DNA of 64,000 nt from Candidatus Bathyarchaeia archaeon. GTDB taxonomy: Bacteria; Hydrogenedentota; Hydrogenedentia; Hydrogenedentales; SLHB01. The DNA is taken from contig DATKVG010000043.1 in assembly GCA_035530195.1 (NCBI GenBank), positions 1,375 to 65,374 on the forward strand, read 5' to 3'. Under the pieces are notes generated by a model. It made no database searches and had not been told where the DNA came from. It saw nothing but the letters and a program-made list of their open reading frames with translations. Position numbers and translations under genes: made by a program. Numbering within the stretch: the first letter of the stretch is position 1; each line of letters starts with the position of its first letter. Of this stretch, positions 23,150-40,532 are shown piece after piece.

Positions 23150-23548
23150 CTATTTGTTAATAATCGCTTCCGCCCAGGCCATGGTGTCTTGTGCAATGGC
23201 AAGAACTTCGGCGTAATCTTCCTTCGTAGCGAATCCGCTCATGCCTGGATACCGCATTTGAGTTGCATAAATGGTCAATTTCTCGGCTTGCCTGATATCC
23301 TCAGGCACAGTCATGCCCGCCTGCTCCAAACCCTCGAGTAACTGGGCAAGGTCATGCACGAAAGCGAAGCGAAGGTTCCGGCTTCGATATACAGCTTTGA
23401 TTGCAAGTTCCGCAGCTTGTTGCGCCATATAGCACAGGTCTTCCCAAAACGCGCCATCGGGTAATGGCTGACGGGCCAGAAGCAACTTTCCTTTGGCGCG
23501 GCGCAGCCAATCCTCTGGACTGCCAGGCAAAACATCAGGCCCCATCAT
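23150..23548 (-). CDS. hepT: HEPN-domain toxin of a HEPN/MNT toxin-antitoxin pair
   Basis: 132 aa. The R..FAFVHDLAQL context fits an Rx4-6H HEPN motif. It overlaps the upstream MNT gene by 14 nt. Confidence 0.75.
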   Translation of the reverse strand: MMGPDVLPGSPEDWLRRAKGKLLLARQPLPDGAFWEDLCYMAQQAAELAIKAVYRSRNLRFAFVHDLAQLLEGLEQAGMTVPEDIRQAEKLTIYATQMRYPGMSGFATKEDYAEVLAIAQDTMAWAEAIINK

Positions 23549-23953: not shown

Positions 23954-26900
23954 CTACACTGCCGAAAGTTCCGCGTCCATCTCCTCGGGCTCGTGCCGGG
24001 GGCGTTCGGCGCGGCCCACGGCGGTGCGCGGCATCTTGAAATCCACCACCGCCAAACGTTCGCGGTATCGGTCGAGGAAGTACGCGATGGTTTCGACGCG
24101 CAGTTTGATAGTCCCGGCCGGGCGGTTCTCGTCGATATCCTTGAAGTAGAAGAACGGCCTGCCCGAGCATTCGAAAATCTCTTCGAGCACAGCGTAGGTG
24201 GGCGCGTCGTGGCCGCATTTGAAATTGGACAGCTCAAGCCCAACAAGGTGCGGGTGCCGCGCCACAAATTTCGCCGCCCATAGTTTTCTGGAGCTGTTTT
24301 CGGCAAAGGTGTTTTTCCAGACGTCGTCGATGCTGAACGGCGAGCAGATTTCGCCCGCCGCGACTTCCGCCCCGAACAGCGGCAGGATGATGTCGTCTTC
24401 GAGCGGCAGCGTATCGTGTGTGAGGATGGGGTAACCGCGTTTCTGAAACTGTTCGAGAATGCCCTGGTTGATGCCGGGATCGTTGTGGTAGGGGCGCGCC
24501 AACACGACAATCGCAAGCCGTTTCTCCCGCTGAACGGTCTCGAGTGCCTGCCGCGCCTCGTTCCGCTGCGCCTCCTGGTATTGGCGCAGCGCGTGCAGCC
24601 CCTGCTTGACCGCGCGCGCCGACTCCGCTTCGCTCAGGCCGAGGTCGTCCGCCCAGTCTTCGTACATCTGGCGGGCGCACAACCGTGCGTTGTCCAGGTT
24701 GATGAACGTGCGTTTGAACCGCAGCCCGCGCTCCGCGAACAGGTCCGTCTCTTTCACAAAGGCGGCGTGTGTGGCCTCGATGGTGGCCATGCTGGTCGGG
24801 CATGCGCGGGTCGCCATCACGCCGTGCAGCCACGTGGGCAGCGTGTCGACCACGGGGAAGAACAGGTGGGTGAGGCGGTGGTCGTGGCCGTGCTTTTTAT
24901 AAAGCAGGTTGTGGACGTGGGCGATGGCCAGCTTGCTCGGATAGCAGGGGTCGATGCTGCCGCGTTTTGCCCCGTCTTTGAACAGCGCGTCCGTGGTGTA
25001 GTCGGACCAGACGAGGTTTTCCGGAGGCACGCCGAGGCTCATGAAGTACCCCGTGAAAAACGGCGCGTTCAAATACATGTTGAGGGCGCGCGGCATGCCG
25101 ATCCGGATGGTTTTCCGCCCTTCGATCAATGCGCGGCGCCGCTTGGCGGATTTGCGGAACGACGGCAGCGCGATCCACGGCACGCGGGGCGCGGGATCCG
25201 CCACACCTGCCACCTCGACGGGCTTGAATACGTCCCGCGCGCAAATCGCCGCCAGGTTCAGGTTGGCCGCCTGCACGGCCCGCTCGCGCGCGCCGATTTC
25301 GCGGGCGTCTGCGACATTTTCGACGGCGCCTTTTTCGCAATTGGCGATGATGATCTGCCGCTTCGCGAAGTCGTTGCCTTCCGAACCGACTTCGATGAAC
25401 GTGCGCATGCACTTGTTGGTGCAGAATGCGCACCGGGTGGTTTCATCCCTGCGGGTCGAGTATCGGATTGCCTGCAACGCGTCGAGGCCGATGAACGTGG
25501 TGTCGTACGGCCGCTCTTCGTACAGGCGCAACACTTCCAATGCGCAGCCGATCGCCCCCGACTCCCCGCAGTGAGGATGCACCACCACCTCCGGCTCGAC
25601 CCCGCTGCCTTCGAACCTCGAGCGGATAAAATCGGCCTGCGCCTTGACTGCGGCAAGGTTGTGCTGCGTACCGCCCTGAAGAATAAACGTCCTGCCAAGC
25701 CGCGCCAGGTTCGGCATCTGGCACACGTACAGCCAGATGTTTTTCGGCAGGACCGCCGCCAGCCCCGCCAGGATCTCGTTGGGCCGCCACCCTTGCCGCT
25801 GGAAATCGACGATGTCTGTCTGCAAGAAAACGGCGCAGCCATAGCTGAATTGCGGCATCACCTCGGCGCTGAACGCGATTTCCGCATACTCATCCACCTG
25901 ATAACCGAACGCGGCCGCCGTCGATTGCAGATAAAACCCGTTGCCGGCCGAGCACTGCGTGTTCAGCCGAAAATCTTTGACTACCCCGTTCTTGAGGATG
26001 ATGATCTTAATGTCCTGCCCGCCCACGTCGCAGATGACGTCCGCCCCGGGGAAGTACAGCAAGCCGCTGTGCATGTGGGCCACCGTCTCGACCAGCGCCA
26101 CGTCTGCCCGAGCCACGCTGCGAAGCATATCTTTCGCGTACCCGGTGGTGGCGCAACCCAGAATCCTGAGGCGGCGGCCCCCGGTTTCGACTTGCCGCTC
26201 GAGTTCGCCCACAACCGCCTGCATGTCTTCTATCGGATTCCCCAGCGACAGCCGGTACGATTTCGCCAGTACCCGCTTGTGCCGATCCAGCAGCACCGCC
26301 TTGGTACTGGTTGACCCGCCGTCGATCCCCAAGAACGTCTCGACCTCGCTCCCGCCCGGCAGCACGGGCGGCCGCCACGCCTCGCGCCGGTACGCCTCGC
26401 GGAACTTCCGCAACTCGTCCGCGGTGCCCGCCAGCCCTTCAAGCTGGCCAAACTCCTCCGCAACCCCTCGCACTTGAATGCCCGGCCGCCTGCGGTGCAC
26501 CGCGCGCCCTTCTTTCAGGTACCATTGCAAGCCGTCCGTGCCCTGGTATACGCCGATCTCCCGGTTCTCCGCGATCTCGGCCCGGGCGTACTCGACGGCG
26601 CCCAGCGCCGAAAATAGGAGCGCATCTTGCGGTACGTGGATCAAATCTTCAGGCCGAGCGCCGGCCGGAACCGGCACTTCCCGTTCCTCCCAGATGAGGG
26701 GGAGGTGGCGCCGCCAGCATTCCTGCATGCCCCGGATGAACGTGTTTGGCCCGCCCAGCAGCAGCACGTCCGGGTACAGCGTGTTGCCCCGCGCCAGCAC
26801 CGACAGGTTTTGCCGGATCAGCGACTCAAACAGGCTCGCCATCAGCTCTTCCGCCGGCACGCCCTGCTTCTGCAGCCCGTTGATATCCGTTTCCGCGAAA

Positions 26901-27472
26901 ACGCCGCACTTGCCCGCCACCGGATGGACGCGCAGCCCATCGTAGCGCATCTCGCCCACCCGCGCCGGGTCAATTCGCAGTTTCGAGCTGATCTTGTCGA
27001 TGACGGCGCCGGTGCCGCCCGCGCATTTGTCGTTCATGGACGCGCTTTTCCGCCGGATGCCCGAGGCCGCGTCGGTCTTGAAGACGATAATCTTGGCGTC
27101 TTCCCCGCCCAGTTCAATCACGCTGCGCACCTGCGGGAACCGTTTCGACACCACCAGGCACAGCGCGTTCACCTCCTGCACGAAATACCCGCCGACATTC
27201 TGCGCCAATGTCGCGCCGCCGGTGCCAGTGGTGAAAACGCGCATCGCGTTGGGGGGCGTGGAAGGAAACGCCTGACCGATCCGCTCCAGGAAGTCCAGGC
27301 AAAGCTCTTGCTGCCTGGTTTCGTGGCGGCGGTAGTCCGTCCAGAGAATCCGGCTTTGCGGATCCGCCGGATCGACGACGACGGCCTTGACCGTGATGCT
27401 GCCCACGTCGATACCGATTACAAGTCCTTCCGCGTATTCCGGTGTGCCTTGAAACCGGCTCTTGGCGGTCAT
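23954..27472 (-). CDS. Fusion of two BcrA/BadF/HgdC-type ATPase (activase) modules with a DUF2229/HGD-D-like C-terminal region
   Basis: Two actin-fold ATPase modules begin at IGIDVGSITVKAVV and LGIDGGSTSTKAVL. Each keeps the paired Cys contexts (MNDKCAGGTG/GKCGVFAETD and NTQCSAGNGF/YGCAVFLQTD). The C-terminal part carries DPCYPSK. Confidence 0.8.
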   Translation of the reverse strand: MTAKSRFQGTPEYAEGLVIGIDVGSITVKAVVVDPADPQSRILWTDYRRHETRQQELCLDFLERIGQAFPSTPPNAMRVFTTGTGGATLAQNVGGYFVQEVNALCLVVSKRFPQVRSVIELGGEDAKIIVFKTDAASGIRRKSASMNDKCAGGTGAVIDKISSKLRIDPARVGEMRYDGLRVHPVAGKCGVFAETDINGLQKQGVPAEELMASLFESLIRQNLSVLARGNTLYPDVLLLGGPNTFIRGMQECWRRHLPLIWEEREVPVPAGARPEDLIHVPQDALLFSALGAVEYARAEIAENREIGVYQGTDGLQWYLKEGRAVHRRRPGIQVRGVAEEFGQLEGLAGTADELRKFREAYRREAWRPPVLPGGSEVETFLGIDGGSTSTKAVLLDRHKRVLAKSYRLSLGNPIEDMQAVVGELERQVETGGRRLRILGCATTGYAKDMLRSVARADVALVETVAHMHSGLLYFPGADVICDVGGQDIKIIILKNGVVKDFRLNTQCSAGNGFYLQSTAAAFGYQVDEYAEIAFSAEVMPQFSYGCAVFLQTDIVDFQRQGWRPNEILAGLAAVLPKNIWLYVCQMPNLARLGRTFILQGGTQHNLAAVKAQADFIRSRFEGSGVEPEVVVHPHCGESGAIGCALEVLRLYEERPYDTTFIGLDALQAIRYSTRRDETTRCAFCTNKCMRTFIEVGSEGNDFAKRQIIIANCEKGAVENVADAREIGARERAVQAANLNLAAICARDVFKPVEVAGVADPAPRVPWIALPSFRKSAKRRRALIEGRKTIRIGMPRALNMYLNAPFFTGYFMSLGVPPENLVWSDYTTDALFKDGAKRGSIDPCYPSKLAIAHVHNLLYKKHGHDHRLTHLFFPVVDTLPTWLHGVMATRACPTSMATIEATHAAFVKETDLFAERGLRFKRTFINLDNARLCARQMYEDWADDLGLSEAESARAVKQGLHALRQYQEAQRNEARQALETVQREKRLAIVVLARPYHNDPGINQGILEQFQKRGYPILTHDTLPLEDDIILPLFGAEVAAGEICSPFSIDDVWKNTFAENSSRKLWAAKFVARHPHLVGLELSNFKCGHDAPTYAVLEEIFECSGRPFFYFKDIDENRPAGTIKLRVETIAYFLDRYRERLAVVDFKMPRTAVGRAERPRHEPEEMDAELSAV

Positions 27473-30400
27473 TTGGTCTCCTGTTCGGTCTTTTCCTGCA
27501 GGGTATTAGCGAGTTCTTCGAACTTGTTTTCCCTCGCGACATCGGCGGGCAGCTTGTCATTGTTGTCTTTGGTGTTCGGGTTCGCGCCCGCGGAAAGCAA
27601 CAAATCGACAATCTCCACGTTGCCGCGGCCGGCGGCTTCATGCAGGAGCGACCGCCCCGTTCTGGCGTCAATGATCGCGTTCGGGTCGGCCCCGCGCTCG
27701 AGCAGCAGCGCCAGGATGTCCTTTTTGCCCATGGTCGCGGCCAGTTGGATGGGCGCCAGGCTGAGAAACCGCCGGCTGGCCACCCCCGCGTATTCATCGA
27801 GCACAGCGCGAAATTCCTCAACATTGCCTTTGGCAATCAGGCTGAACAACGTCTGCCGCGCCCGCTTCTGGCCGCGAGCCGCCACCGTTGTGCCTTGTGC
27901 TGCCGCCTTTTCGGCGCGGGCCCGTATGGCCGCGGCCACCTCTCCGTGGCCGTTCAGGCTGGCGACATCCGCGGGCGAGCGGCCCTCCGCATCCATCGCC
28001 ACGGGGTTCGCGCCCATCATCAGCAACAGTTGAACGATCTCGAGGCTGCCTGCCTCCGCTGCGTCGTGTAGCGGGGTGGCCCGCTGTTTTCCTGACTCAG
28101 CCACCGCCACGTTAGCCCCATATCCTAAAAGCAGTTCAACAATCTCCTTATTCCCGGCTTTGCTCGCCACATGAAGCGCCGTCAACCCTTTCCGCCGTAA
28201 GTTCACCAGCGAACGATTCTGTGAAACAAGACGCTCGACCTCCTCCACGTTGCCCGCGTTGAGAGCATCCTCAAACTCGCCCGATCCGCCCGTGCGGAGT
28301 ATGCTCACGGCCCGGCGGTCGCCGCGCGAGTCCGCAATCTGCAACGGCGTCCGGCCGTCGTTGGCGCGGGCATTCGGATTGGCCCGGCGCTGGATCAGCG
28401 GCCGGATTAGATTCGAGTGGCCCAGTTCCGCCGCGATGTGCAACGCCGTGTACCCGCTGCTGTCGCCGCTGTTCGGATCCGCCCCACCGTCGAGCAGTGC
28501 CTGCATGGTTTCCAGCCGGCCTTCGCCCGCCGCCACATGGACCGGCTGCCGGCCGCGGAAATCCTTCGCCAGAACGTCCGCGCCGTTGCCCACCAGCACC
28601 TTCGTCACATCGGCGTCGCTGCGTTGCGCCGCAATATGCAGGGCATGACGGCCGGTCGAATCGGCCGCGTCCAGCGGCACACCCAGCGCCAGCAGAAGCC
28701 GAACCATGTTCGCCGAACCCTTTTCCGCGGCGTAGTGCAGTACCGTCCAGCCATTGCTGTCGGCGGCATTCACGTCGCTTCCCGCCTCCGCAATCTGGCG
28801 CACCAAGGCCTCGTCGGAAGTTTGAACGGCGACGTGCAGGGGTGTCCGGCCAAGGCTGTCAACGATTTTGATATCCGCACCCTGCTGCAGCAGGGTCTTG
28901 GCCGTGGCGGTAAAACCATGCTCCAAGGCGCAAAGCAGCGGGGTCCGGCCCGTGCTGTCCTGCGCGTTTACCGGTGCGCCGTTGCGCAGCAATACGACAC
29001 AAAGCACGCGCTGTCCTGCCTGCGCCGCGCTATGAAGCGGAGTCATTCCCATCGCGTCGGCCGCGTCCGGCTTCAGACCCTTCGAGATGAGCAACTCCAT
29101 GAGTTCTATCCGGTGCTCCATGTTGTCCGTGACGCGGCCCGCGCTGTCCTGTCCGAACGGCCGCACCCCCGCCCCCTCAACCGCGTAGTGCAGCGCGGTC
29201 GCCTGCCGCGCACTGACCGCGTGGAGGTCTGCGCCGCGATCGAGCAGGGCCAGCAGCCCCGCTTTTTCCCCGGCCTTCGCGGCCGCGTGGAGCGGAGTCC
29301 CGCCGTCGGCGTCAAGCGCGCCGATGAGCGCCCCGCGATCAAGCAACGCCGTCACCGCGCCCGCCGCGCCCGCGGCCGCGGCGGAATGGAGCGCGGTTGC
29401 CCCGTTTTTGTTGGTGCCTTCAATCCGGGCCCCGTGATCCAGCAAAAAGGCGATCATCCCGGGGCGGTCTAATTGCGCGGCAACGTGCAGCGGTGTAGCG
29501 CCTTTGTCGTCGCCGGCGTTGATATCGCCGCCGAGGCTCAAGATGAGTTCAACACATTCGGTGTCGTCGGCCTGGACTTTCCGGTGCAGAACGGTGGCCC
29601 CCCCTCTCAGGCGCTGGTTCATGTCTACGCCGACCGCGGCCAGCGCCTTGATAACGCCGGCATGATTCCACTGGGCCGCGTAAGCCAGGGGCGTATCTTT
29701 CTCGATGTTGGGCATGGAAAGCGCGGCTCCGTGGGCCGCCAAGAATTCAATCACATCAGCCCTGCCCGCGTGGGCCGCCGCATGCACCACCGTGTTTCTT
29801 ATCCCATCAACTTTGTCTATCAGGTTGGGAGCCGCCGCCAACATCTGTTCCATCGCCTGAAGATCCCCATAGCAGGCGGCCAGTGAAAAATCGTAGGCGG
29901 CCCCGTAGTCGCGCAGCAACTGTACACAATCCCAATGCGAATTTGATGCCGCCGCTATCAGCGGCGGTTGATTCGTCTTTTCCGATGTTTTCACCGGGCT
30001 CGCGCCATAGTCCAGCAACAGTGCCAGAATGTCATGGCGCCCCGCCGCTGCCGCTGCCGCCACCGGTGTGTCGCCGGCCTCGTCGGGCGCATCCAAACTC
30101 GCGCCCCGCAAAATATGCGTCTCCACGTCCCGGATATCTCCTGCTTTGACGGCTTCAACCAGCGTGGGGTGGACGGGCGCCGCAAGGTTTGCCGGGGGCG
30201 TGGCCGGCGCCTTTTTTGTCGGTTGGCGCACGGGCGCGACCGGCCTCACCACCGAGGGCGTAGCAGCAGGCGCCAACGGCGACGGCATGGCGAGGGTCCC
30301 AGACGACGGCTGTACCTGGGCGCCCTCCAGAGGCACATCCGACAACCAAGCCGGCGGCTGATCCTCTGCCTTTGGCTCGAGTTTTGGGGGTCGTCCGGCC

Positions 30401-30834
30401 TCATCGGGCTTAACCAGCTTGCCTTTCAAGAACTGCATGCTCATCCCCGGGCCGACCGGGATCGCGCCGGGTGGGAAACCCGGTGTCGCAGGGGGAACGG
30501 CCGGCACAACGGCCGGAGGCGGCGGCGCACCCGCCGACCCAGCCTCGGGTTTTGCGGGTTGGACATTTTCAGCCGCTGGTTTCAGAGGCTGGATAGTGGT
30601 CGATGAATCGCCTTGCGCGGCTTTTCTGAGCAGGTCGGCCACATCCGGCGGGAGGTCGTCCGTGATAGGAATTGGCAGGGGAGCGGCCTCTTTTTGAGTG
30701 GGAGCAGGGTTTTGCGGCGGTTGTGACGTGGCGGCATCGACAGCGTAAGCCACTGAAACCAAGCCACTTAACAAAATTGCCGCACACCATAATCCTGCAA
30801 CAAAATCCCTGAACTCCATTTGGTGCTTCCTCAT
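27469..30834 (-). CDS. Signal/anchor-bearing giant ankyrin-repeat protein (~25 ANK repeats)
   Basis: Hydrophobic N-terminus FVAGLWCAAILLSGLVSVAYA|VD, then a ~190-aa Pro/Ala-rich linker. This is followed by repeated G.TPLH.AA..G....V..LL..GA... units running to the C-terminus. Its stop overlaps the downstream ATG (ATGA). An alternative start is M6 at 30819, preceded by AGGAAG. Confidence 0.85.
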   Translation of the reverse strand: MRKHQMEFRDFVAGLWCAAILLSGLVSVAYAVDAATSQPPQNPAPTQKEAAPLPIPITDDLPPDVADLLRKAAQGDSSTTIQPLKPAAENVQPAKPEAGSAGAPPPPAVVPAVPPATPGFPPGAIPVGPGMSMQFLKGKLVKPDEAGRPPKLEPKAEDQPPAWLSDVPLEGAQVQPSSGTLAMPSPLAPAATPSVVRPVAPVRQPTKKAPATPPANLAAPVHPTLVEAVKAGDIRDVETHILRGASLDAPDEAGDTPVAAAAAAGRHDILALLLDYGASPVKTSEKTNQPPLIAAASNSHWDCVQLLRDYGAAYDFSLAACYGDLQAMEQMLAAAPNLIDKVDGIRNTVVHAAAHAGRADVIEFLAAHGAALSMPNIEKDTPLAYAAQWNHAGVIKALAAVGVDMNQRLRGGATVLHRKVQADDTECVELILSLGGDINAGDDKGATPLHVAAQLDRPGMIAFLLDHGARIEGTNKNGATALHSAAAAGAAGAVTALLDRGALIGALDADGGTPLHAAAKAGEKAGLLALLDRGADLHAVSARQATALHYAVEGAGVRPFGQDSAGRVTDNMEHRIELMELLISKGLKPDAADAMGMTPLHSAAQAGQRVLCVVLLRNGAPVNAQDSTGRTPLLCALEHGFTATAKTLLQQGADIKIVDSLGRTPLHVAVQTSDEALVRQIAEAGSDVNAADSNGWTVLHYAAEKGSANMVRLLLALGVPLDAADSTGRHALHIAAQRSDADVTKVLVGNGADVLAKDFRGRQPVHVAAGEGRLETMQALLDGGADPNSGDSSGYTALHIAAELGHSNLIRPLIQRRANPNARANDGRTPLQIADSRGDRRAVSILRTGGSGEFEDALNAGNVEEVERLVSQNRSLVNLRRKGLTALHVASKAGNKEIVELLLGYGANVAVAESGKQRATPLHDAAEAGSLEIVQLLLMMGANPVAMDAEGRSPADVASLNGHGEVAAAIRARAEKAAAQGTTVAARGQKRARQTLFSLIAKGNVEEFRAVLDEYAGVASRRFLSLAPIQLAATMGKKDILALLLERGADPNAIIDARTGRSLLHEAAGRGNVEIVDLLLSAGANPNTKDNNDKLPADVARENKFEELANTLQEKTEQETK

Positions 30835-30844
30835 TAAGATCTAT

Positions 30845-32587
30845 CTACGCCGACGTTTCCTGGCTATGCTTCCAACGCGACCATTCCGGGCTCCGATCCA
30901 TCAAAGCCGCCACGTAACTAACGAAATTCGCCGCCCGCCCAACGACACCCCGCTCTCTCGGCACATGCTGCAGCGGCTGCTGCAACTCCGGCCGGCTCCG
31001 GCAGAACTCCCTTATGACGCCCAACGGATACGCCGACCGCTCGACCGCCTTCTGGAACTCCTGTTTGCAGCGTGCCTTGGCATCGCCCAGCACCATCTGC
31101 ACCCGGCTGTAAGCGTTGATATCGCCCTCGCCGGACGTCTCGATGGGCAGGAACAGGATCTCGGGGTAACGGCCAACCACCGCCGCCTGCGTACCGTCCG
31201 ACTGCGTGGACGGCAGGCATCCGAACGGTTTCAAGCTCAACACCATATGGGCCAGCCCGTTTATTGAATAATAAATGGTTTTTCCGACCTCGAGATGGCT
31301 CTCGCCGCCGCTGATTTTGTAGTTGAAAAACGGCCGGGCCAATTTGCGCAGCGTCGGATGGTCTGCCTGAGGGTGGGCGGTCCCGCCAAGGCAATTACTG
31401 ATTCTCGCATACTCCCTTTCCAGCAGTCTTGATCCCAACGCCAGCAGCAACACCTGCTTGCGGTGCTTAAACACCCGCCGAAACCGGCCCGCAAAACCGG
31501 GAAAACCTGGCGTGGCATCCACGCCCTCATCAAGCAGCCGCCATCTCTCGGCATAAAGCAGATAGTTTACCCATGAGCACATGCTTTCGGCAATTACTTC
31601 CGCGCCCTCCTGCTCCAGGTACGAGAACATCCTGTAGTTGCCGTCGCCTTCGGTCATCTGCGCCCACGCCTCCCCGATGACTTTCACCGCGGGCTTTGGG
31701 CGGGTGTAATCCACGACGATGCCCCTGTCGATCCGCTTGCGAAAATCCTCCAGCGACTCGCCAAAACCGTCCTTCAGCAGTTGTTCGATCAGGTGCTGGA
31801 GCATGTCCGGGTCGGTTCGGAGCGCCAAGCGGCTCATCAGCCGCGTGCCCAGCCCGGCCTTGAATTCTCGCGCACTCCATTCCCGCAACATCCGGCCACA
31901 ATCCTCGAGGATGCCGTCGAAAACCTGGTCGGTCTGGCCCGGCACGACCTCGTACGGCCGGATTTGGCACGCCAGATCATTGAGGATATCCCCGAAAAGG
32001 AACGCCGTCAGCAGCATCAGGGCAAACTTCGTGTTCACTTCAAGCCCCGCGTCGTCCGCACCCTGCTCCAGCCCGCCCGTCTGCTGGAACAGCAGCACCC
32101 GGAAACCGTCAAAGCCCCCGTTGCGCAACGCCAGCCGGAATTCCGATTCGTACATCCCAAACCGGCACGGCCCGCACGAACCCGCCGTCACAAACACGTA
32201 ATTCCCGAGGATGGCCTCCCGGTCCAGGCCCTCCTCATCCCGCAGTCGCCGCAGGTAATTGAGCAAGGCTCCAACCGTGAAATAAGCCGGGTTGCACATC
32301 CCCGCGTTGCCGTACTCGTGGCCGGTGTGGTAGTCGGCTTTGCTGGGTGTGGGAATCCGCCCCGTGTTATATCCCAGCCCGCCGATCGCCGCCTCGATCA
32401 GCGCATCATGCCGCTCCGTCAGCCCGCCAAACAGCACCTTGACATGCCCACGCTCGCTTTTCCTGAAAGGCCGCTCCTGGGCCCGTCGAAAATGCCGGAC
32501 GCCGTCCGCCGGCTCAGGCCGGGGGGCCGCAAGCGCGTCTTGTTCCAAAACCTTGGTCACGGGTCTCACTCCAGAAAAATGCGCCAA
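30845..32587 (-). CDS. 2-hydroxyacyl-CoA dehydratase (HGD-D/HgdB-like) family protein, activase-related
   Basis: RPFRKSERGHVKVLFGGLTERHD...GNAGMCNPAYF...AGSCGPCRFGMYE is typical of the HGD-D family. The start is uncertain: TTG at 32587, or GTG at 32560 which is preceded by GGAG. Confidence 0.7.
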   Translation of the reverse strand: MAHFSGVRPVTKVLEQDALAAPRPEPADGVRHFRRAQERPFRKSERGHVKVLFGGLTERHDALIEAAIGGLGYNTGRIPTPSKADYHTGHEYGNAGMCNPAYFTVGALLNYLRRLRDEEGLDREAILGNYVFVTAGSCGPCRFGMYESEFRLALRNGGFDGFRVLLFQQTGGLEQGADDAGLEVNTKFALMLLTAFLFGDILNDLACQIRPYEVVPGQTDQVFDGILEDCGRMLREWSAREFKAGLGTRLMSRLALRTDPDMLQHLIEQLLKDGFGESLEDFRKRIDRGIVVDYTRPKPAVKVIGEAWAQMTEGDGNYRMFSYLEQEGAEVIAESMCSWVNYLLYAERWRLLDEGVDATPGFPGFAGRFRRVFKHRKQVLLLALGSRLLEREYARISNCLGGTAHPQADHPTLRKLARPFFNYKISGGESHLEVGKTIYYSINGLAHMVLSLKPFGCLPSTQSDGTQAAVVGRYPEILFLPIETSGEGDINAYSRVQMVLGDAKARCKQEFQKAVERSAYPLGVIREFCRSRPELQQPLQHVPRERGVVGRAANFVSYVAALMDRSPEWSRWKHSQETSA

Positions 32588-32907
32588 GAATTACCGGATG
32601 CCTATCGCTTTTTATCATGCCACAACCCCGGCAACCGGCTCAACACCTCAGCCCGCAACGTCTTGCGCGGCAATGGCATCCCATGCCGGCAAAGACTCCG
32701 GTGAAAGCATTTCGGGCCGGCGAAATGTTCCGCTGCTCCGGCGGTTTTTCTCTTTTTAGCTGCCTTGGTCCGAGGACTGGGGCATTAATCTTAAATAGTG
32801 GGCATCGGGCTGCATCCGGTTATGTTGATTATGCACTTTTTTTCCTGTAATCTGTGATCAGCCCCGTTTTTTTGAGCGAGGGGAAACAAAACTGAAAGGA
32901 TCGTGAC

Positions 32908-34058: not shown

Positions 34059-35060
34059 ATGGCGATGAGAAAATTTATCAATGATCCGAAGAATCTGGTG
34101 AGTGAACTGTTGCAGGGTTTTGCGCTAGCCCACGGGAAAAAGGTGAAGCTGGCGGGAACCAACCTGGTGGTACGGGCAAAAGCGAAGCCGAAGAACAAAG
34201 TCGCCGTGGTGACCCTCGGCGGGAGCGGGCATGAGCCGGCGTTAAGCGGTTTTGTGGGCAAGGGCATGCTCGACATCAGCGTGCCCGGCGAGATTTTTGC
34301 CGCGCCCGGCCCGCCGCGCGTTATCGAGGCGTTGCGCGCCGCAAACAGGGACGCGGGCGTCCTGTTTATCGTGCTCAACCACGCCGGTGACGTGATGTCG
34401 GCCGACGTGGCCATGGAGATGGCCGCAAAAGAGGGCCTGAAGGTCCGCCGCGTGCTCACCCACGAAGATATCAGCGCCGGCTCGCGCGAGAATCCCGAAG
34501 ACCGCCGGGGTCTCGTGGGTGCCCTGTTCGTGATGAAAGTGGCGGGCGCGGCCGCCGAACAGGGGCGGTCGATCGACGAGTGCGCCGCCATCGCCGAGCG
34601 GATGGAACGGAACATGGCGACGCTGGCCGTGGCCCTCAGCAGCGCGTCCCATCCCAGCACCGGCGAGCCCATCTCGGACGTGCCTGACGGCCGGATGGTC
34701 GTGGGCATGGGTCAGCACGGCGAGGCCGGCGGCGGCGAGCAGCCGCTCAAATCGGCCAACGAGACCGCCGAAATCATGCTGCCGCTCTTGCTCAAGGACC
34801 TCGAAATCAAAAAGGGCGAACAGGTGCTGGTGATGCTCAACGGCGTTGGCTCGACCACGCTCATGGAACTATTCCTGGTGTTGCGCCGCGTCAAGGGGCT
34901 GCTTGAAGAGCGCGGGGTGACGCTGGCGCGGTCGCTGGTGGGCGAATACCTGACCGTCCAGGAGATGGGGGGGTTCCAGATGTGCGTCGCGCGGATGGAC
35001 CCGGAACTGATTGAATTGTGGGACACGCCGTGCGACACGCCGGCACTTACGGTGAAATGA
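34059..35060 (+). CDS. dhaK: Dihydroxyacetone kinase, DhaK (substrate-binding) subunit
   Basis: KFINDPKNLVSELLQGFALAH...VVTLGGSGHEPALSGFVGKGMLD is the Dak1 signature. GGAGGGG RBS. Confidence 0.9.
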   Translation: MAMRKFINDPKNLVSELLQGFALAHGKKVKLAGTNLVVRAKAKPKNKVAVVTLGGSGHEPALSGFVGKGMLDISVPGEIFAAPGPPRVIEALRAANRDAGVLFIVLNHAGDVMSADVAMEMAAKEGLKVRRVLTHEDISAGSRENPEDRRGLVGALFVMKVAGAAAEQGRSIDECAAIAERMERNMATLAVALSSASHPSTGEPISDVPDGRMVVGMGQHGEAGGGEQPLKSANETAEIMLPLLLKDLEIKKGEQVLVMLNGVGSTTLMELFLVLRRVKGLLEERGVTLARSLVGEYLTVQEMGGFQMCVARMDPELIELWDTPCDTPALTVK

Positions 35061-35063
35061 ACG

Positions 35064-35705
35064 ATGGATCAGCTTGCTTACAACGACGTGTTGAGAATGC
35101 TACGAGGCGCCGCGGCCGAGGTAAGGGTAAATCACGACACGCTGTCGAAGCTCGACTCAGTGGGCGGCGACGGCGACCACGGCACCACCATGCTGCGTTG
35201 CATCGAGGCCATCGAAACCGCCATCGCACAGGCGGAGGACCGCAACCTGGCGGGGTTGCTCAACAAGGCCGGGTGGGCCGTGATGGGCATCGATGGCGGC
35301 GCAACGGGCCCGCTGTTCGGCTCGTTTTTCCTCGGCATGTCCGAGGCCGCCGAAGGCCGCGACGCATTGGATGCCCCGGCACTCGCGGACCTGTTCCAGG
35401 AAGGGCTCGCCGCCATCCGCCGCCGGACTAAGGCCCAGCCCGGCGACAAAACCATGATCGACGCGCTCGCGCCCGCGGTCGATGCGGTGAAAAAAGCCGC
35501 CGAAGCCGGCGCCCCGCCCGTCGATGCGCTGGCGGCAGCGGCGAAGGCCGCAGAAACCGGCGCGATCGCCACGCGCGCCATGCAGGCCCGGTTTGGCCGC
35601 GCAAAAAATATCGGGCAAAAGAGCATGGGCGCCGAAGATCCGGGTGCGGCGTCGGTGGCGTGCATATTCAAAGGCTTTTACCAAGGAGCTACAACCAATG
35701 CCTGA
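35064..35705 (+). CDS. dhaL: Dihydroxyacetone kinase, DhaL (nucleotide-binding) subunit
   Basis: LSKLDSVGGDGDHGTTM and GGATGPLFG are Dak2 signatures. It starts 3 nt after the dhaK stop. Confidence 0.9.
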   Translation: MDQLAYNDVLRMLRGAAAEVRVNHDTLSKLDSVGGDGDHGTTMLRCIEAIETAIAQAEDRNLAGLLNKAGWAVMGIDGGATGPLFGSFFLGMSEAAEGRDALDAPALADLFQEGLAAIRRRTKAQPGDKTMIDALAPAVDAVKKAAEAGAPPVDALAAAAKAAETGAIATRAMQARFGRAKNIGQKSMGAEDPGAASVACIFKGFYQGATTNA

Positions 35706-36579
35706 CACGGACAAGACAAAAACCGAAGAAAAAAAAGATTTCGGGATCGGCATCCCCATGGAAACGCCGGGCTTTTTTCTGAAAGGTTCGGCGCACCTGT
35801 ACTGGGGCACGAAAAACCGGCTCTCCCACATTTTCAACCCGAAGTCGGGCCGCACCGTGATGCTCGCGTTCGACCACGGCTACATCATGGGCCCCACCAC
35901 CGGCCTCGAACGCATCGACCTGGCAATCCCGCCGCTCATCCCCTACGTGGACTGCCTGATGTGCACGCGGGGCGCGTTGCGCGCGTGTATCAGCCCCGAG
36001 GTGCGCAAGCCCGTGGTGATGCGGTGTAGCACCGGCGCCACCGTCCTCAAAGATCTCAGCAACGAAGTCATCGGCGTCACGGTCGAGGAGGCGGCGGCGC
36101 TGAACGCGGCGGCCATCACCACCCAGGTCTGCATTGGCGCCGAATACGAGCGGGAAACCCTCGAAAACCTCGCCTACCTCGTCAACGAAGGCAACCGCCT
36201 TGGCCTGCCGGCGCTCGGCGTCACTGCCGTCGGCAAAGAGATGGTGCGCGACGCCCGATACCTCGGGCTGGCATGCCGCGTCGTGGCCGAACTGGGCGCG
36301 CATTTCGTGAAGACGTACTACTGCGAACCGGGTTTCGACGAGGTGGTGGCCGGCTGCCCGGTGCCTATCGTCATCGCGGGCGGCAAAAAGCTGCCGGAAC
36401 TGCAGGCGCTTCAGATGGCCTACAAAGCGATCGACCAGGGCGCGCTCGGTGTCGACATGGGCCGCAACATTTTCGCCGCCGAACATCCCGTGGCAATGGC
36501 GCAGGCGGTGGCGGCGGTGATCCACAACAACGAAAAGCCGGAGAAGGCGTTCGATCTGTACAGGAGTCTGAAGGGCTGA
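35698..36579 (+). CDS. Class I aldolase of the DeoC/FbaB/LsrF family
   Basis: The ATG at 35698 overlaps the 3' end of dhaL by 8 nt. VMLAFDHGYIMGP...HFVKTYY...IAGGKK...GVDMGRNIF fits the LsrF/DhnA-type pattern. The ORF-track start at 35524 lies inside dhaL. Confidence 0.75.
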   Translation: MPDTDKTKTEEKKDFGIGIPMETPGFFLKGSAHLYWGTKNRLSHIFNPKSGRTVMLAFDHGYIMGPTTGLERIDLAIPPLIPYVDCLMCTRGALRACISPEVRKPVVMRCSTGATVLKDLSNEVIGVTVEEAAALNAAAITTQVCIGAEYERETLENLAYLVNEGNRLGLPALGVTAVGKEMVRDARYLGLACRVVAELGAHFVKTYYCEPGFDEVVAGCPVPIVIAGGKKLPELQALQMAYKAIDQGALGVDMGRNIFAAEHPVAMAQAVAAVIHNNEKPEKAFDLYRSLKG

Positions 36580-37286: not shown

Positions 37287-37333
37287 GGCGGCCACTGAGA
37301 TGGATACGTATGGCCGCCCCGATGTTTTTGTTT
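37287..37333 (+). terminator. Probable intrinsic terminator after the cupin gene
   Basis: GGCGGCCA (37287-37294) pairs with TGGCCGCC (37311-37318) and is followed by a T-rich run (GATGTTTTTGTTT). A second GGGCCC-T6 element follows. Confidence 0.5.
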
Positions 37334-37361
37334 GGGCCCGATTTTTTGTGCGGAGGTCTTG

Positions 37362-40532
<3,171 letters not shown>

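Follow-up and report, generated by a model that had tools for sequence, protein, structure and literature searches.

A minus-strand operon with a putative split PlsA/PlsR-Ger type reductase and a predicted exported ankyrin-repeat protein

Organization of the locus and its products

The DNA analyzed is a 64,000-nt stretch of contig DATKVG010000043.1 (assembly GCA_035530195.1; deposited as Candidatus Bathyarchaeia archaeon, Hydrogenedentota in the GTDB lineage), hereafter the window. Its minus strand carries three packed open reading frames (ORFs) at 30845-32587, 27469-30834 and 23954-27472, as checked by ORF search and translation. They encode, in this order, a protein devoid of Pfam matches (gene 1), a giant ankyrin (ANK) protein, and a double activase fused to a DUF2229 domain (gene 3). 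The nature of the enzyme encoded by gene 1 and gene 3, and the relation of the ANK gene to it, are the subject of this analysis.

The three ORFs had been listed in an earlier note on this DNA, and stand as given there; the start codons of gene 1 and of the ANK gene were moved, on the basis of orthologues and Shine-Dalgarno sequences. Gene 1 most likely starts at the GTG at 32560, preceded by GGAG 9 nt upstream and in register with the MTKVL/MSKVL with which orthologues open, the TTG at 32587 being less likely; so defined, it spans 30845..32560 (571 aa). The likeliest start of the ANK gene is the ATG at 30819, which has AGGAAG upstream and corresponds to the Met opening every orthologue, the gene covering 27469..30819 (1116 aa) and the longer ORF beginning at 30834. 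Gene 3 (23954..27472) encodes 1172 aa. With the corrected start, 25 nt separate the stop of gene 1 from the ANK start, instead of the 10 nt previously counted. The ANK stop overlaps the gene 3 start in an ATGA at 27469-27472 (a -4 nt junction), as already described, with AGGAG upstream, and the overlap is kept in contigs L002, L003, L086 and L092. No convincing terminator or promoter was found between the three genes, only weak hairpins with three GC pairs within coding sequence being detected, and the proposal of one tightly packed minus-strand operon holds. The 5' intergenic region of gene 1 (32561..32790, minus strand) is the presumed promoter region of the operon; it contains no match to a sigma-70-like promoter, and an Rfam search gave no family, riboswitch or leader there. 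Two terminator-like hairpins (CCGCTGCTCCGGCGG with TTTTTCTCTT, and a 10-bp stem) lie in the same region on the plus strand, at 32730-32784; no plus-strand gene terminates there.

Gene 3 proved by profile hidden Markov model (HMM) search to be what had been claimed, a fusion of two HgdC/BcrA-type activase modules to DUF2229. The Pfam family BcrAD_BadFG matches two stretches of the protein (E 2e-62) and DUF2229 (PF09989) residues 790-1021 (E 7e-43); NCBIfam returns an acyl-CoA dehydratase activase, TIGR00241 matches, and the nearest solved structures are the HgdC, HadI and MbdQ/MbdP ATPases. Activase module 1 (26573..27424, minus strand as all features of the operon; about aa 17-300) has its cluster residues at Cys150 and Cys189, module 2 (25532..26341; about aa 378-647) at Cys507 and Cys546. 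Module 2 includes the best Pfam and NCBIfam stretch (381-645), and is matched by chains of 1HUX, 4EHT and 9GAI. A CxxCxxxC...C motif (25337..25432; Cys681, 684, 688 and 712), found also in the Listeria protein described below, is followed by the DUF2229 or 'Red1' domain (24083..25105; about aa 790-1130), which carries the triad Cys843, Cys891 and Cys1086. The four cluster contexts quoted in the earlier note were all verified, as was the DPCYPSK at Cys843.

The product of gene 1, a putative second reductase subunit equivalent to PlsR or 'Red2', had been assigned to the HGD-D/HgdB family. The quoted motif AGSCGPCRFGMYE is found in the protein; no HMM supports the assignment, and searches against Pfam and NCBIfam gave no match even at E=10, HGD-D (PF06050) included. 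Sequence and profile searches of the PDB similarly retrieved no relative. The gene 1 family is large, with more than 6300 homologues in a word-indexed search and 2301 clusters at 50% identity matching at E<=1e-3 in an exhaustive one; Cys89, Cys132 and Cys448 are invariant in 92 out of 92 sequences aligned. An AlphaFold2 model of the protein (predicted local distance difference test score, pLDDT, 82; predicted template modelling score 0.84) was compared by Foldseek with the PDB. The top 14 matches are all DCCP, BzdNO, HadBC or MbdON, and are marginal (E 2e-3 to 8e-2, template modelling score 0.24-0.45, probability 0.77-1.0). To judge from the model, gene 1 would be HgdB-like only at the level of a distant fold. 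When the gene 1 family was aligned to the C-terminal domain of gene 3 by hhalign, no similarity reached significance, and a short RPYE/RPYH..PG motif was all that matched. Neither gene 1 nor gene 3 features a signal or a transmembrane segment.

The ANK protein is matched by Pfam Ank_2 (E 9e-124) and Ank (E 2e-108), and its sole strongly hydrophobic segment is N-terminal. The segment 30742..30819 encodes a predicted Sec-type signal peptide (MEFRDFVAGLWCAAILLSGLVSVAYA, followed by VD), in which a positive n-region and an h-region of 18 aa lead to an AxA site. A Pro/Ala-rich tether of about 170 aa follows (30226..30741), predicted to be disordered on the basis of composition (residues 32-225 are 23% Pro and 16% Ala) and of pLDDT. 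The remainder of the gene (27472..30225) encodes a hinge (..KKAPATPP..PTLVEAVKAGDIRDVETHILRG) and then 27 ankyrin repeats, as delimited by hinge alignment, Pfam and AlphaFold2. In the AlphaFold2 model an N-terminal helix precedes a disordered stretch at residues 25-194 (pLDDT about 30), and 27 helix-pair repeats occupy residues 220-1115. The picture of a giant ankyrin protein with a signal-bearing N-terminus and a Pro/Ala-rich linker is thus upheld, the signal as a prediction; the number of repeats, set at about 25 in the earlier note, is 27 helix pairs in the model.

The N-termini of the ANK orthologues have a common pattern. In all of them positive residues precede the hydrophobic core, and acidic or neutral residues follow it; small residues are found at -3 and -1 in most orthologues (AYA/VD, VYA/AD, ARA/AD, ASA/QQ, AYA/DP). 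No lipobox or Tat motif is conserved in these N-termini, and the segment may be either a cleaved signal or a signal anchor. Because the distribution of charges follows the positive-inside rule, tether and repeats are predicted to lie outside the cytoplasm, on the other side of the membrane with respect to the Fe-S enzyme. A motif of the tether, KGIQIxxxxPxExPxxL, recurs in several orthologues, for example those of L090 (twice), L093, L095 and L100, and the MQFLKGKLVKP of the window protein is a possibly related form of it; the recurrent motif may be a linear binding motif.

Gene 1 and gene 3 as probable parts of a PlsA-type enzyme

The PlsA/PlsR system of Clostridium perfringens is a two-gene enzyme, fused in facultative anaerobes including Listeria (PMC12838417, PMC9702350, PMC13159169), where plsA/plsR orthologues and anaerobic plasmalogens have been reviewed (PMC9702350). 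The architecture and the activity of Ger/PlsA proteins have been published (PMC13159169, PMC12838417), and the arrangement known as BBD, two activase modules followed by DUF2229, which Pfam detects in gene 3, is the conserved core of experimentally confirmed PlsA-like Ger enzymes (PMC13159169). Comparisons were made with a 1475-aa gene of L. monocytogenes, annotated as 2-hydroxyacyl-CoA dehydratase and found by tblastn of annotated records, which is presumably the published plsA orthologue and served as a stand-in for the characterised T. maritima, D. alkenivorans and C. perfringens proteins. The Listeria protein is made up of BBD, followed by a C-terminal extension. Gene 3 residues 20-1129 align with Listeria residues 5-973 (28% identity, E 1e-118), and gene 1 residues 26-497 with Listeria residues 992-1402 (22%, E 6e-21), Cys89, Cys132 and Cys448 being matched. 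Aligned in tandem to the same protein, gene 3 and gene 1 together reproduce the layout of a fused PlsA-type protein, in a collinearity that covers the 4-Cys linker motif and both Cys triads. On this sequence evidence the two genes are probably a split, order-permuted member of the PlsA/PlsR-Ger family of lipid ester-to-ether reductases.

The canonical order, plsA followed by plsR in adjacent or fused genes, does not apply to the window, where the order is PlsR-like, ANK, PlsA-like. The canonical order is found in Brevibacillus laterosporus, in which homologues of gene 3 (43% identity) and then gene 1 (39%) follow one another. Natural fusions exist in both orders: P0360 (1579 aa) is BBD plus gene 1, P0336 (1623 aa) gene 1 plus BBD, the latter keeping the order of the window with nothing between the gene 1 part and BBD. 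A third fusion, P0351 (1271 aa), joins gene 1 to a GltD-like NAD(P)H/Fe-S oxidoreductase with Fer4_20, Pyr_redox_2 and Fer4 domains, and suggests a possible NAD(P)H-linked electron donor.

One preprint holds that BBD-only 'Ger' hits are devoid of the second reduction domain (bioRxiv 10.64898/2026.06.23.733905). The gene located directly upstream is, in about 70 species genomes, a conserved, Pfam-less gene of 550-600 aa, collinear with that domain. As judged from sequence, it is the neighbouring gene 1 that supplies the second reduction domain of these proteins. BBD-only 'Ger homologues' have been tallied, as proteins without that domain, in surveys of ether lipids and branched glycerol dialkyl glycerol tetraethers in Planctomycetota, Acidobacteriota, Marinisomatota, Myxococcota and sponge symbionts; with gene 1 as the missing domain, the survey hits need rereading. 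Gene 1 would provide a marker gene, and B. laterosporus a cultivable test organism.

As an alternative, gene 1 and gene 3 might encode an ATP-dependent reductase or dehydratase from the HAD/BCR/DCCP superfamily, with a soluble, non-lipid substrate. The low identity to PlsA-type proteins, the best fold matches of gene 1 (DCCP, BzdNO, HadBC), the presence of the family in aerobes, and the lack in the window of lipid-synthesis genes other than one for an acyl-CoA dehydrogenase are in line with this possibility. The collinearity is nevertheless full-length and, with the 4-Cys motif and both Cys triads, fits the PlsA/Ger architecture, whose BBD core is that of the confirmed Ger enzymes (PMC13159169). 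Systems made of a separate activase and an HGD-D protein do not provide a fit, HGD-D being undetected, and a soluble-substrate enzyme is accordingly held to be very unlikely. For similar reasons the pair cannot be kept among the unassigned modules of the YjiL/YjiM type, where the earlier note had placed it: the activase is duplicated and fused to DUF2229, the partner lacks HGD-D, and the two are collinear with a fused PlsA-type protein.

Distribution and conservation of the ankyrin gene

Gene 1 homologues were monitored in one genome per species, and 80 loci were returned. In about 70 of them gene 3 follows gene 1 on the same strand, with a spacer usually 30-300 bp long, and in none of these pairs is an ANK gene found. 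The hosts are Phycisphaerae, Acidobacteriota, Gemmatimonadota, Ignavibacteria, Marinimicrobia, Myxococcota, Poribacteria, Gammaproteobacteria, and two other Hydrogenedentota. Only one locus of the scan carries ANK, that of the Hydrogenedentota metagenome-assembled genome L001, in which gene 1 is 90% identical to the window gene. Because the adjacent pair is found without ANK in about 70 species, the ANK protein is an add-on, and not a core subunit; adjacent pairs of this kind are what the earlier note had named as grounds for refuting its view.

The ANK-less loci have features of their own. Many of their gene 3 homologues (L016, L027, L012, L014, L036, L043, L057 and others, in Phycisphaerae, Gemmatimonadota, Terriglobales and other Hydrogenedentota) begin with a Cys/Gly/Ser-rich tail (MGCSSGSCGTGS.., GGGCSSGGCGSG..), absent throughout the ANK clade described below; metal binding and membrane targeting are candidate roles for it. 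In some Ignavibacteria, Kelch or BNR propellers with a Por_Secre_tail, sorted by the type IX secretion system, are inserted at the gene 1/gene 3 junction (L033 9720-10937, L037 6005-7996, L046 12470-13759); sporadic in the group, they provide, after ANK, another example of secreted repeat proteins located there.

ANK is more deeply conserved than the scan alone would indicate. On every metagenomic contig whose gene 1 ranks next in similarity (55-58% identity), gene 1 and gene 3 are separated by an ANK gene of about 1100 aa, which one contig has split in two. The distant ANK orthologues share 38-41% identity with the window protein, run collinear to it over about 920 aa, and keep the same build, with signal-like N-terminus, Pro/Ala-rich tether, hinge and repeat array, the hinge taking the form KKxVPETPPxxLPxPKYPTLxEAVKAGDxxDVENHILRG. 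A homology search with the whole ANK protein returned one orthologue and otherwise generic ANK proteins only. A 47-bit degenerate pattern of hinge DNA, run against a metagenome collection, served to seek orthologues irrespective of their flanks. Ten contigs were found, including divergent members (gene 1 49-52%, gene 3 46-48% identity); gene 1 upstream and/or gene 3 downstream are present wherever the contig extends past ANK, L097 being too short to show either. In neither the ANK homology search nor the metagenome hinge search was an ANK orthologue found away from gene 1 and gene 3.

A neighbour-joining tree was built from 92 gene 1 sequences. The 12 loci with ANK group together in it as a single clade of uncultured bacteria (bootstrap 100/100), which contains no ANK-less member while pairwise gene 1 identities drop to 50%. 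Since the NusA encoded by L087 is closest to that of Hydrogenedentes, the clade resides at least partly within Hydrogenedentota, ANK-less Hydrogenedentota being located on another branch. A shallow, lineage-specific insertion of ANK, a candidate raised by the species scan, is ruled out by the presence of ANK in the 55-58% relatives, by the hinge search and by the tree. ANK was inserted, and yet is no recent accident, being fixed in a whole monophyletic clade; the association with the enzyme genes is in this respect stronger than had been claimed.

The ANK gene is also under selection. The dN/dS ratio is 0.10-0.11 for gene 1, 0.09 for gene 3 and 0.18-0.20 for the whole ANK gene; within the latter the repeat array scores 0.17, and signal peptide plus tether, the fastest-evolving part, 0.21-0.33. 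The ratios are well under 1, and selection therefore acts on the ANK protein itself, beyond the need to keep a frame open for coupling. This bears on the possibility that ANK is an unrelated passenger, for example a secreted eukaryote-like protein directed against hosts or predators, retained because its excision would disturb the expression of gene 3. A passenger would be consistent with a junction that hosts unrelated genes in other lineages, and with the ANK gene evolving about twice as fast as the enzyme genes. Frame-keeping alone predicts a dN/dS near 1, in contrast to the 0.17-0.20 measured. The hinge, the signal peptide and a collinear array of about 900 aa without large indels are moreover kept down to 38% identity, no orthologue turned up elsewhere in the searches made, and ANK is present in all clade members examined, while the inserts of other lineages are sporadic. 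Taken together, these data make a mere passenger unlikely.

The same conservation would suit the opposite idea, advanced in the earlier note, that ANK is an integral subunit, tether or substrate of a new ATP-driven radical or redox machine formed with gene 1 and gene 3. ANK is tightly coupled in translation on both sides, is fixed in the whole clade with orthologues solely at the gene 1/gene 3 junction, and is under purifying selection with the number of repeats kept. Set against this are the enzyme pairs without ANK in about 70 species from many phyla, the natural fusions of gene 1 to gene 3, and the charges and AxA sites which predict the ANK repeats to be outside, gene 1 and gene 3 having no signal or transmembrane segments. 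No obvious extra docking domain was noticed in the gene 1 or gene 3 proteins of the ANK clade either, and an integral role is considered improbable.

No neighbours beyond the three genes are conserved among the ANK-clade contigs compared. Directly after the gene 3 stop the window carries a toxin-antitoxin-like pair on the minus strand, formed by a HEPN protein and an MNT-type nucleotidyltransferase of the NTP_transf_2 family (23150-23548 and 23535-~23900), absent from the related contigs L002 and L003. Genes for Dak1, Dak2 and a DeoC-family aldolase lie divergently upstream of gene 1 (34059-36579, plus strand) and are conserved in L001 and L003; in these two contigs a carbamoyltransferase-SxtJ-DUF5989 block, missing in the window, separates them from gene 1. 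Further away, at 37332-40532 (plus strand), is found a 1066-aa protein with a hydrazine-synthase-alpha middle domain and a formylglycine-generating enzyme (FGE)-sulfatase domain, and a 1260-aa protein with the same two domains is encoded near the locus in L003. In L092, a member of the ANK clade, an alkaline ceramidase gene (1030-2487) is located divergently upstream of gene 1, and is not conserved in other contigs.

Proposed function and relation to known systems

The locus is probably a split lipid ester reductase of the PlsA/PlsR-Ger type to which a clade-specific, exported ANK accessory protein has been added, in one operon. By analogy to HgdC, the two activase modules of gene 3 would share a bridging [4Fe-4S] cluster and, at the expense of ATP, feed the enzyme with a low-potential electron. 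Its destination would be a heterodimer-like catalytic core, in which the gene 1 protein ('Red2') pairs with the gene 3 DUF2229 domain ('Red1'), each catalytic half having its three-Cys set. Under anoxic conditions, enzymes of this family turn the ester-bound acyl chain at sn-1 of glycerolipids into an alkenyl or alkyl ether; homology suggests that a membrane glycerolipid would be reduced here at that ester. The ANK gene would have been inserted once at the gene 1/gene 3 junction, in the ancestor of one clade, and would have been kept since by purifying selection, translationally coupled to gene 3. Its product, predicted to be exported by the Sec route, would expose on the periplasmic side a disordered Pro/Ala tether of about 170 aa, the hinge and the 27-repeat solenoid, and may thus act as a clade-specific accessory protein of the envelope side, produced in fixed proportion with the enzyme.

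Several observations weigh against this interpretation. Gene 1 and gene 3 are no more than 22-28% identical to the PlsA-type protein of Listeria, and PlsA and Ger are indistinguishable by sequence (PMC11868695, PMC13274423). The ANK-less subfamily resides in lineages usually deemed aerobic (such as Gemmatimonas, Bryobacterales and Brevibacillus), odd hosts for an oxygen-sensitive ether-lipid enzyme. The gene 1/gene 3 junction holds unrelated genes in other lineages (glyoxalase/VOC in Acidobacteria, small lipoprotein-like proteins in Phycisphaerales, a PD-(D/E)XK gene in one locus), and position at the junction does not by itself prove a functional link between ANK and the enzyme. Export of the ANK protein is deduced from sequence features only, and a periplasmic protein has no obvious route by which to affect a cytoplasmic Fe-S enzyme.

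A tentative suggestion, rather less probable than the accessory role outlined above, is that the solenoid works with the ether-lipid reductase as a genuine partner from across the membrane, the two forming a new trans-envelope lipid-remodelling module of the Hydrogenedentota clade. As a partner, it could be a periplasmic scaffold receiving, organising or protecting new ether lipids or their transport machinery; alternatively, ANK could be needed for full enzyme output, in the way that AnkB is for KatB. If true, the link would join cytoplasmic membrane-lipid chemistry to a periplasmic scaffold, a combination whose counterpart is not described. A full-text literature search found no paper joining ankyrin with DUF2229, BcrAD_BadFG, plasmalogen synthase or Ger, and agrees with the earlier note, whose author knew of no described case of an ankyrin scaffold embedded in such a module. 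The enzyme family is known; the split, permuted and ANK-interrupted operon is new.

The closest relatives of the enzyme are the PlsA/PlsR proteins of C. perfringens (fused in Listeria, Enterococcus and others), and the Ger proteins of Thermotoga maritima and Desulfatibacillum alkenivorans. The window enzyme resembles them in having two BcrAD_BadFG modules, a Cys-rich linker, DUF2229 and a second reductase part. It differs because split, with the PlsR-like gene first and a 3.3-kb ANK gene between the two; its PlsR-like part is moreover about 570 aa long, with extra helical inserts, and has no Pfam match. The ANK-less pairs ('Ger architecture 2', BBD-only) have both genes and their order in common with the window, at 45-63% identity, and differ in the lack of the ANK gene and, in some cases, in the Cys/Gly/Ser-rich N-terminal tail of gene 3. 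A common logic, in which an HgdC-type ATPase activates an Fe-S catalytic subunit, and a marginal resemblance of the predicted gene 1 fold to the catalytic subunits connect the locus to the HAD, BCR and DCCP enzymes with their activases and to E. coli YjiL/YjiM. In contrast to these systems, the substrates of which are CoA esters or small molecules, gene 1 has no HGD-D match, and the gene 3 activase is duplicated and fused to DUF2229.

The nearest parallel to the ANK gene is provided by katB-ankB of Pseudomonas aeruginosa and Myxococcus xanthus, where an exported ankyrin protein and a redox enzyme are similarly encoded in one operon. AnkB is a small protein, with only a few repeats. Its partner is a catalase, and not an Fe-S reductase, and the sequence relationship to the window protein is limited to the ANK repeats. 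In the account of Howell 2000 cited in PMC12754779, the katB operon encodes AnkB as a periplasmic protein that KatB requires in order to be active. In terms of size, the comparison is rather with the solenoids of eukaryotes. Eukaryotic ankyrins have a membrane-binding domain of 24 repeats. Unlike them, the window protein is bacterial, predicted to be exported by Sec, mounted on a disordered Pro-rich tether and made up of no other domains; like them, it features an uninterrupted array of at least 24 repeats, able to serve as a long protein-binding scaffold or spring.

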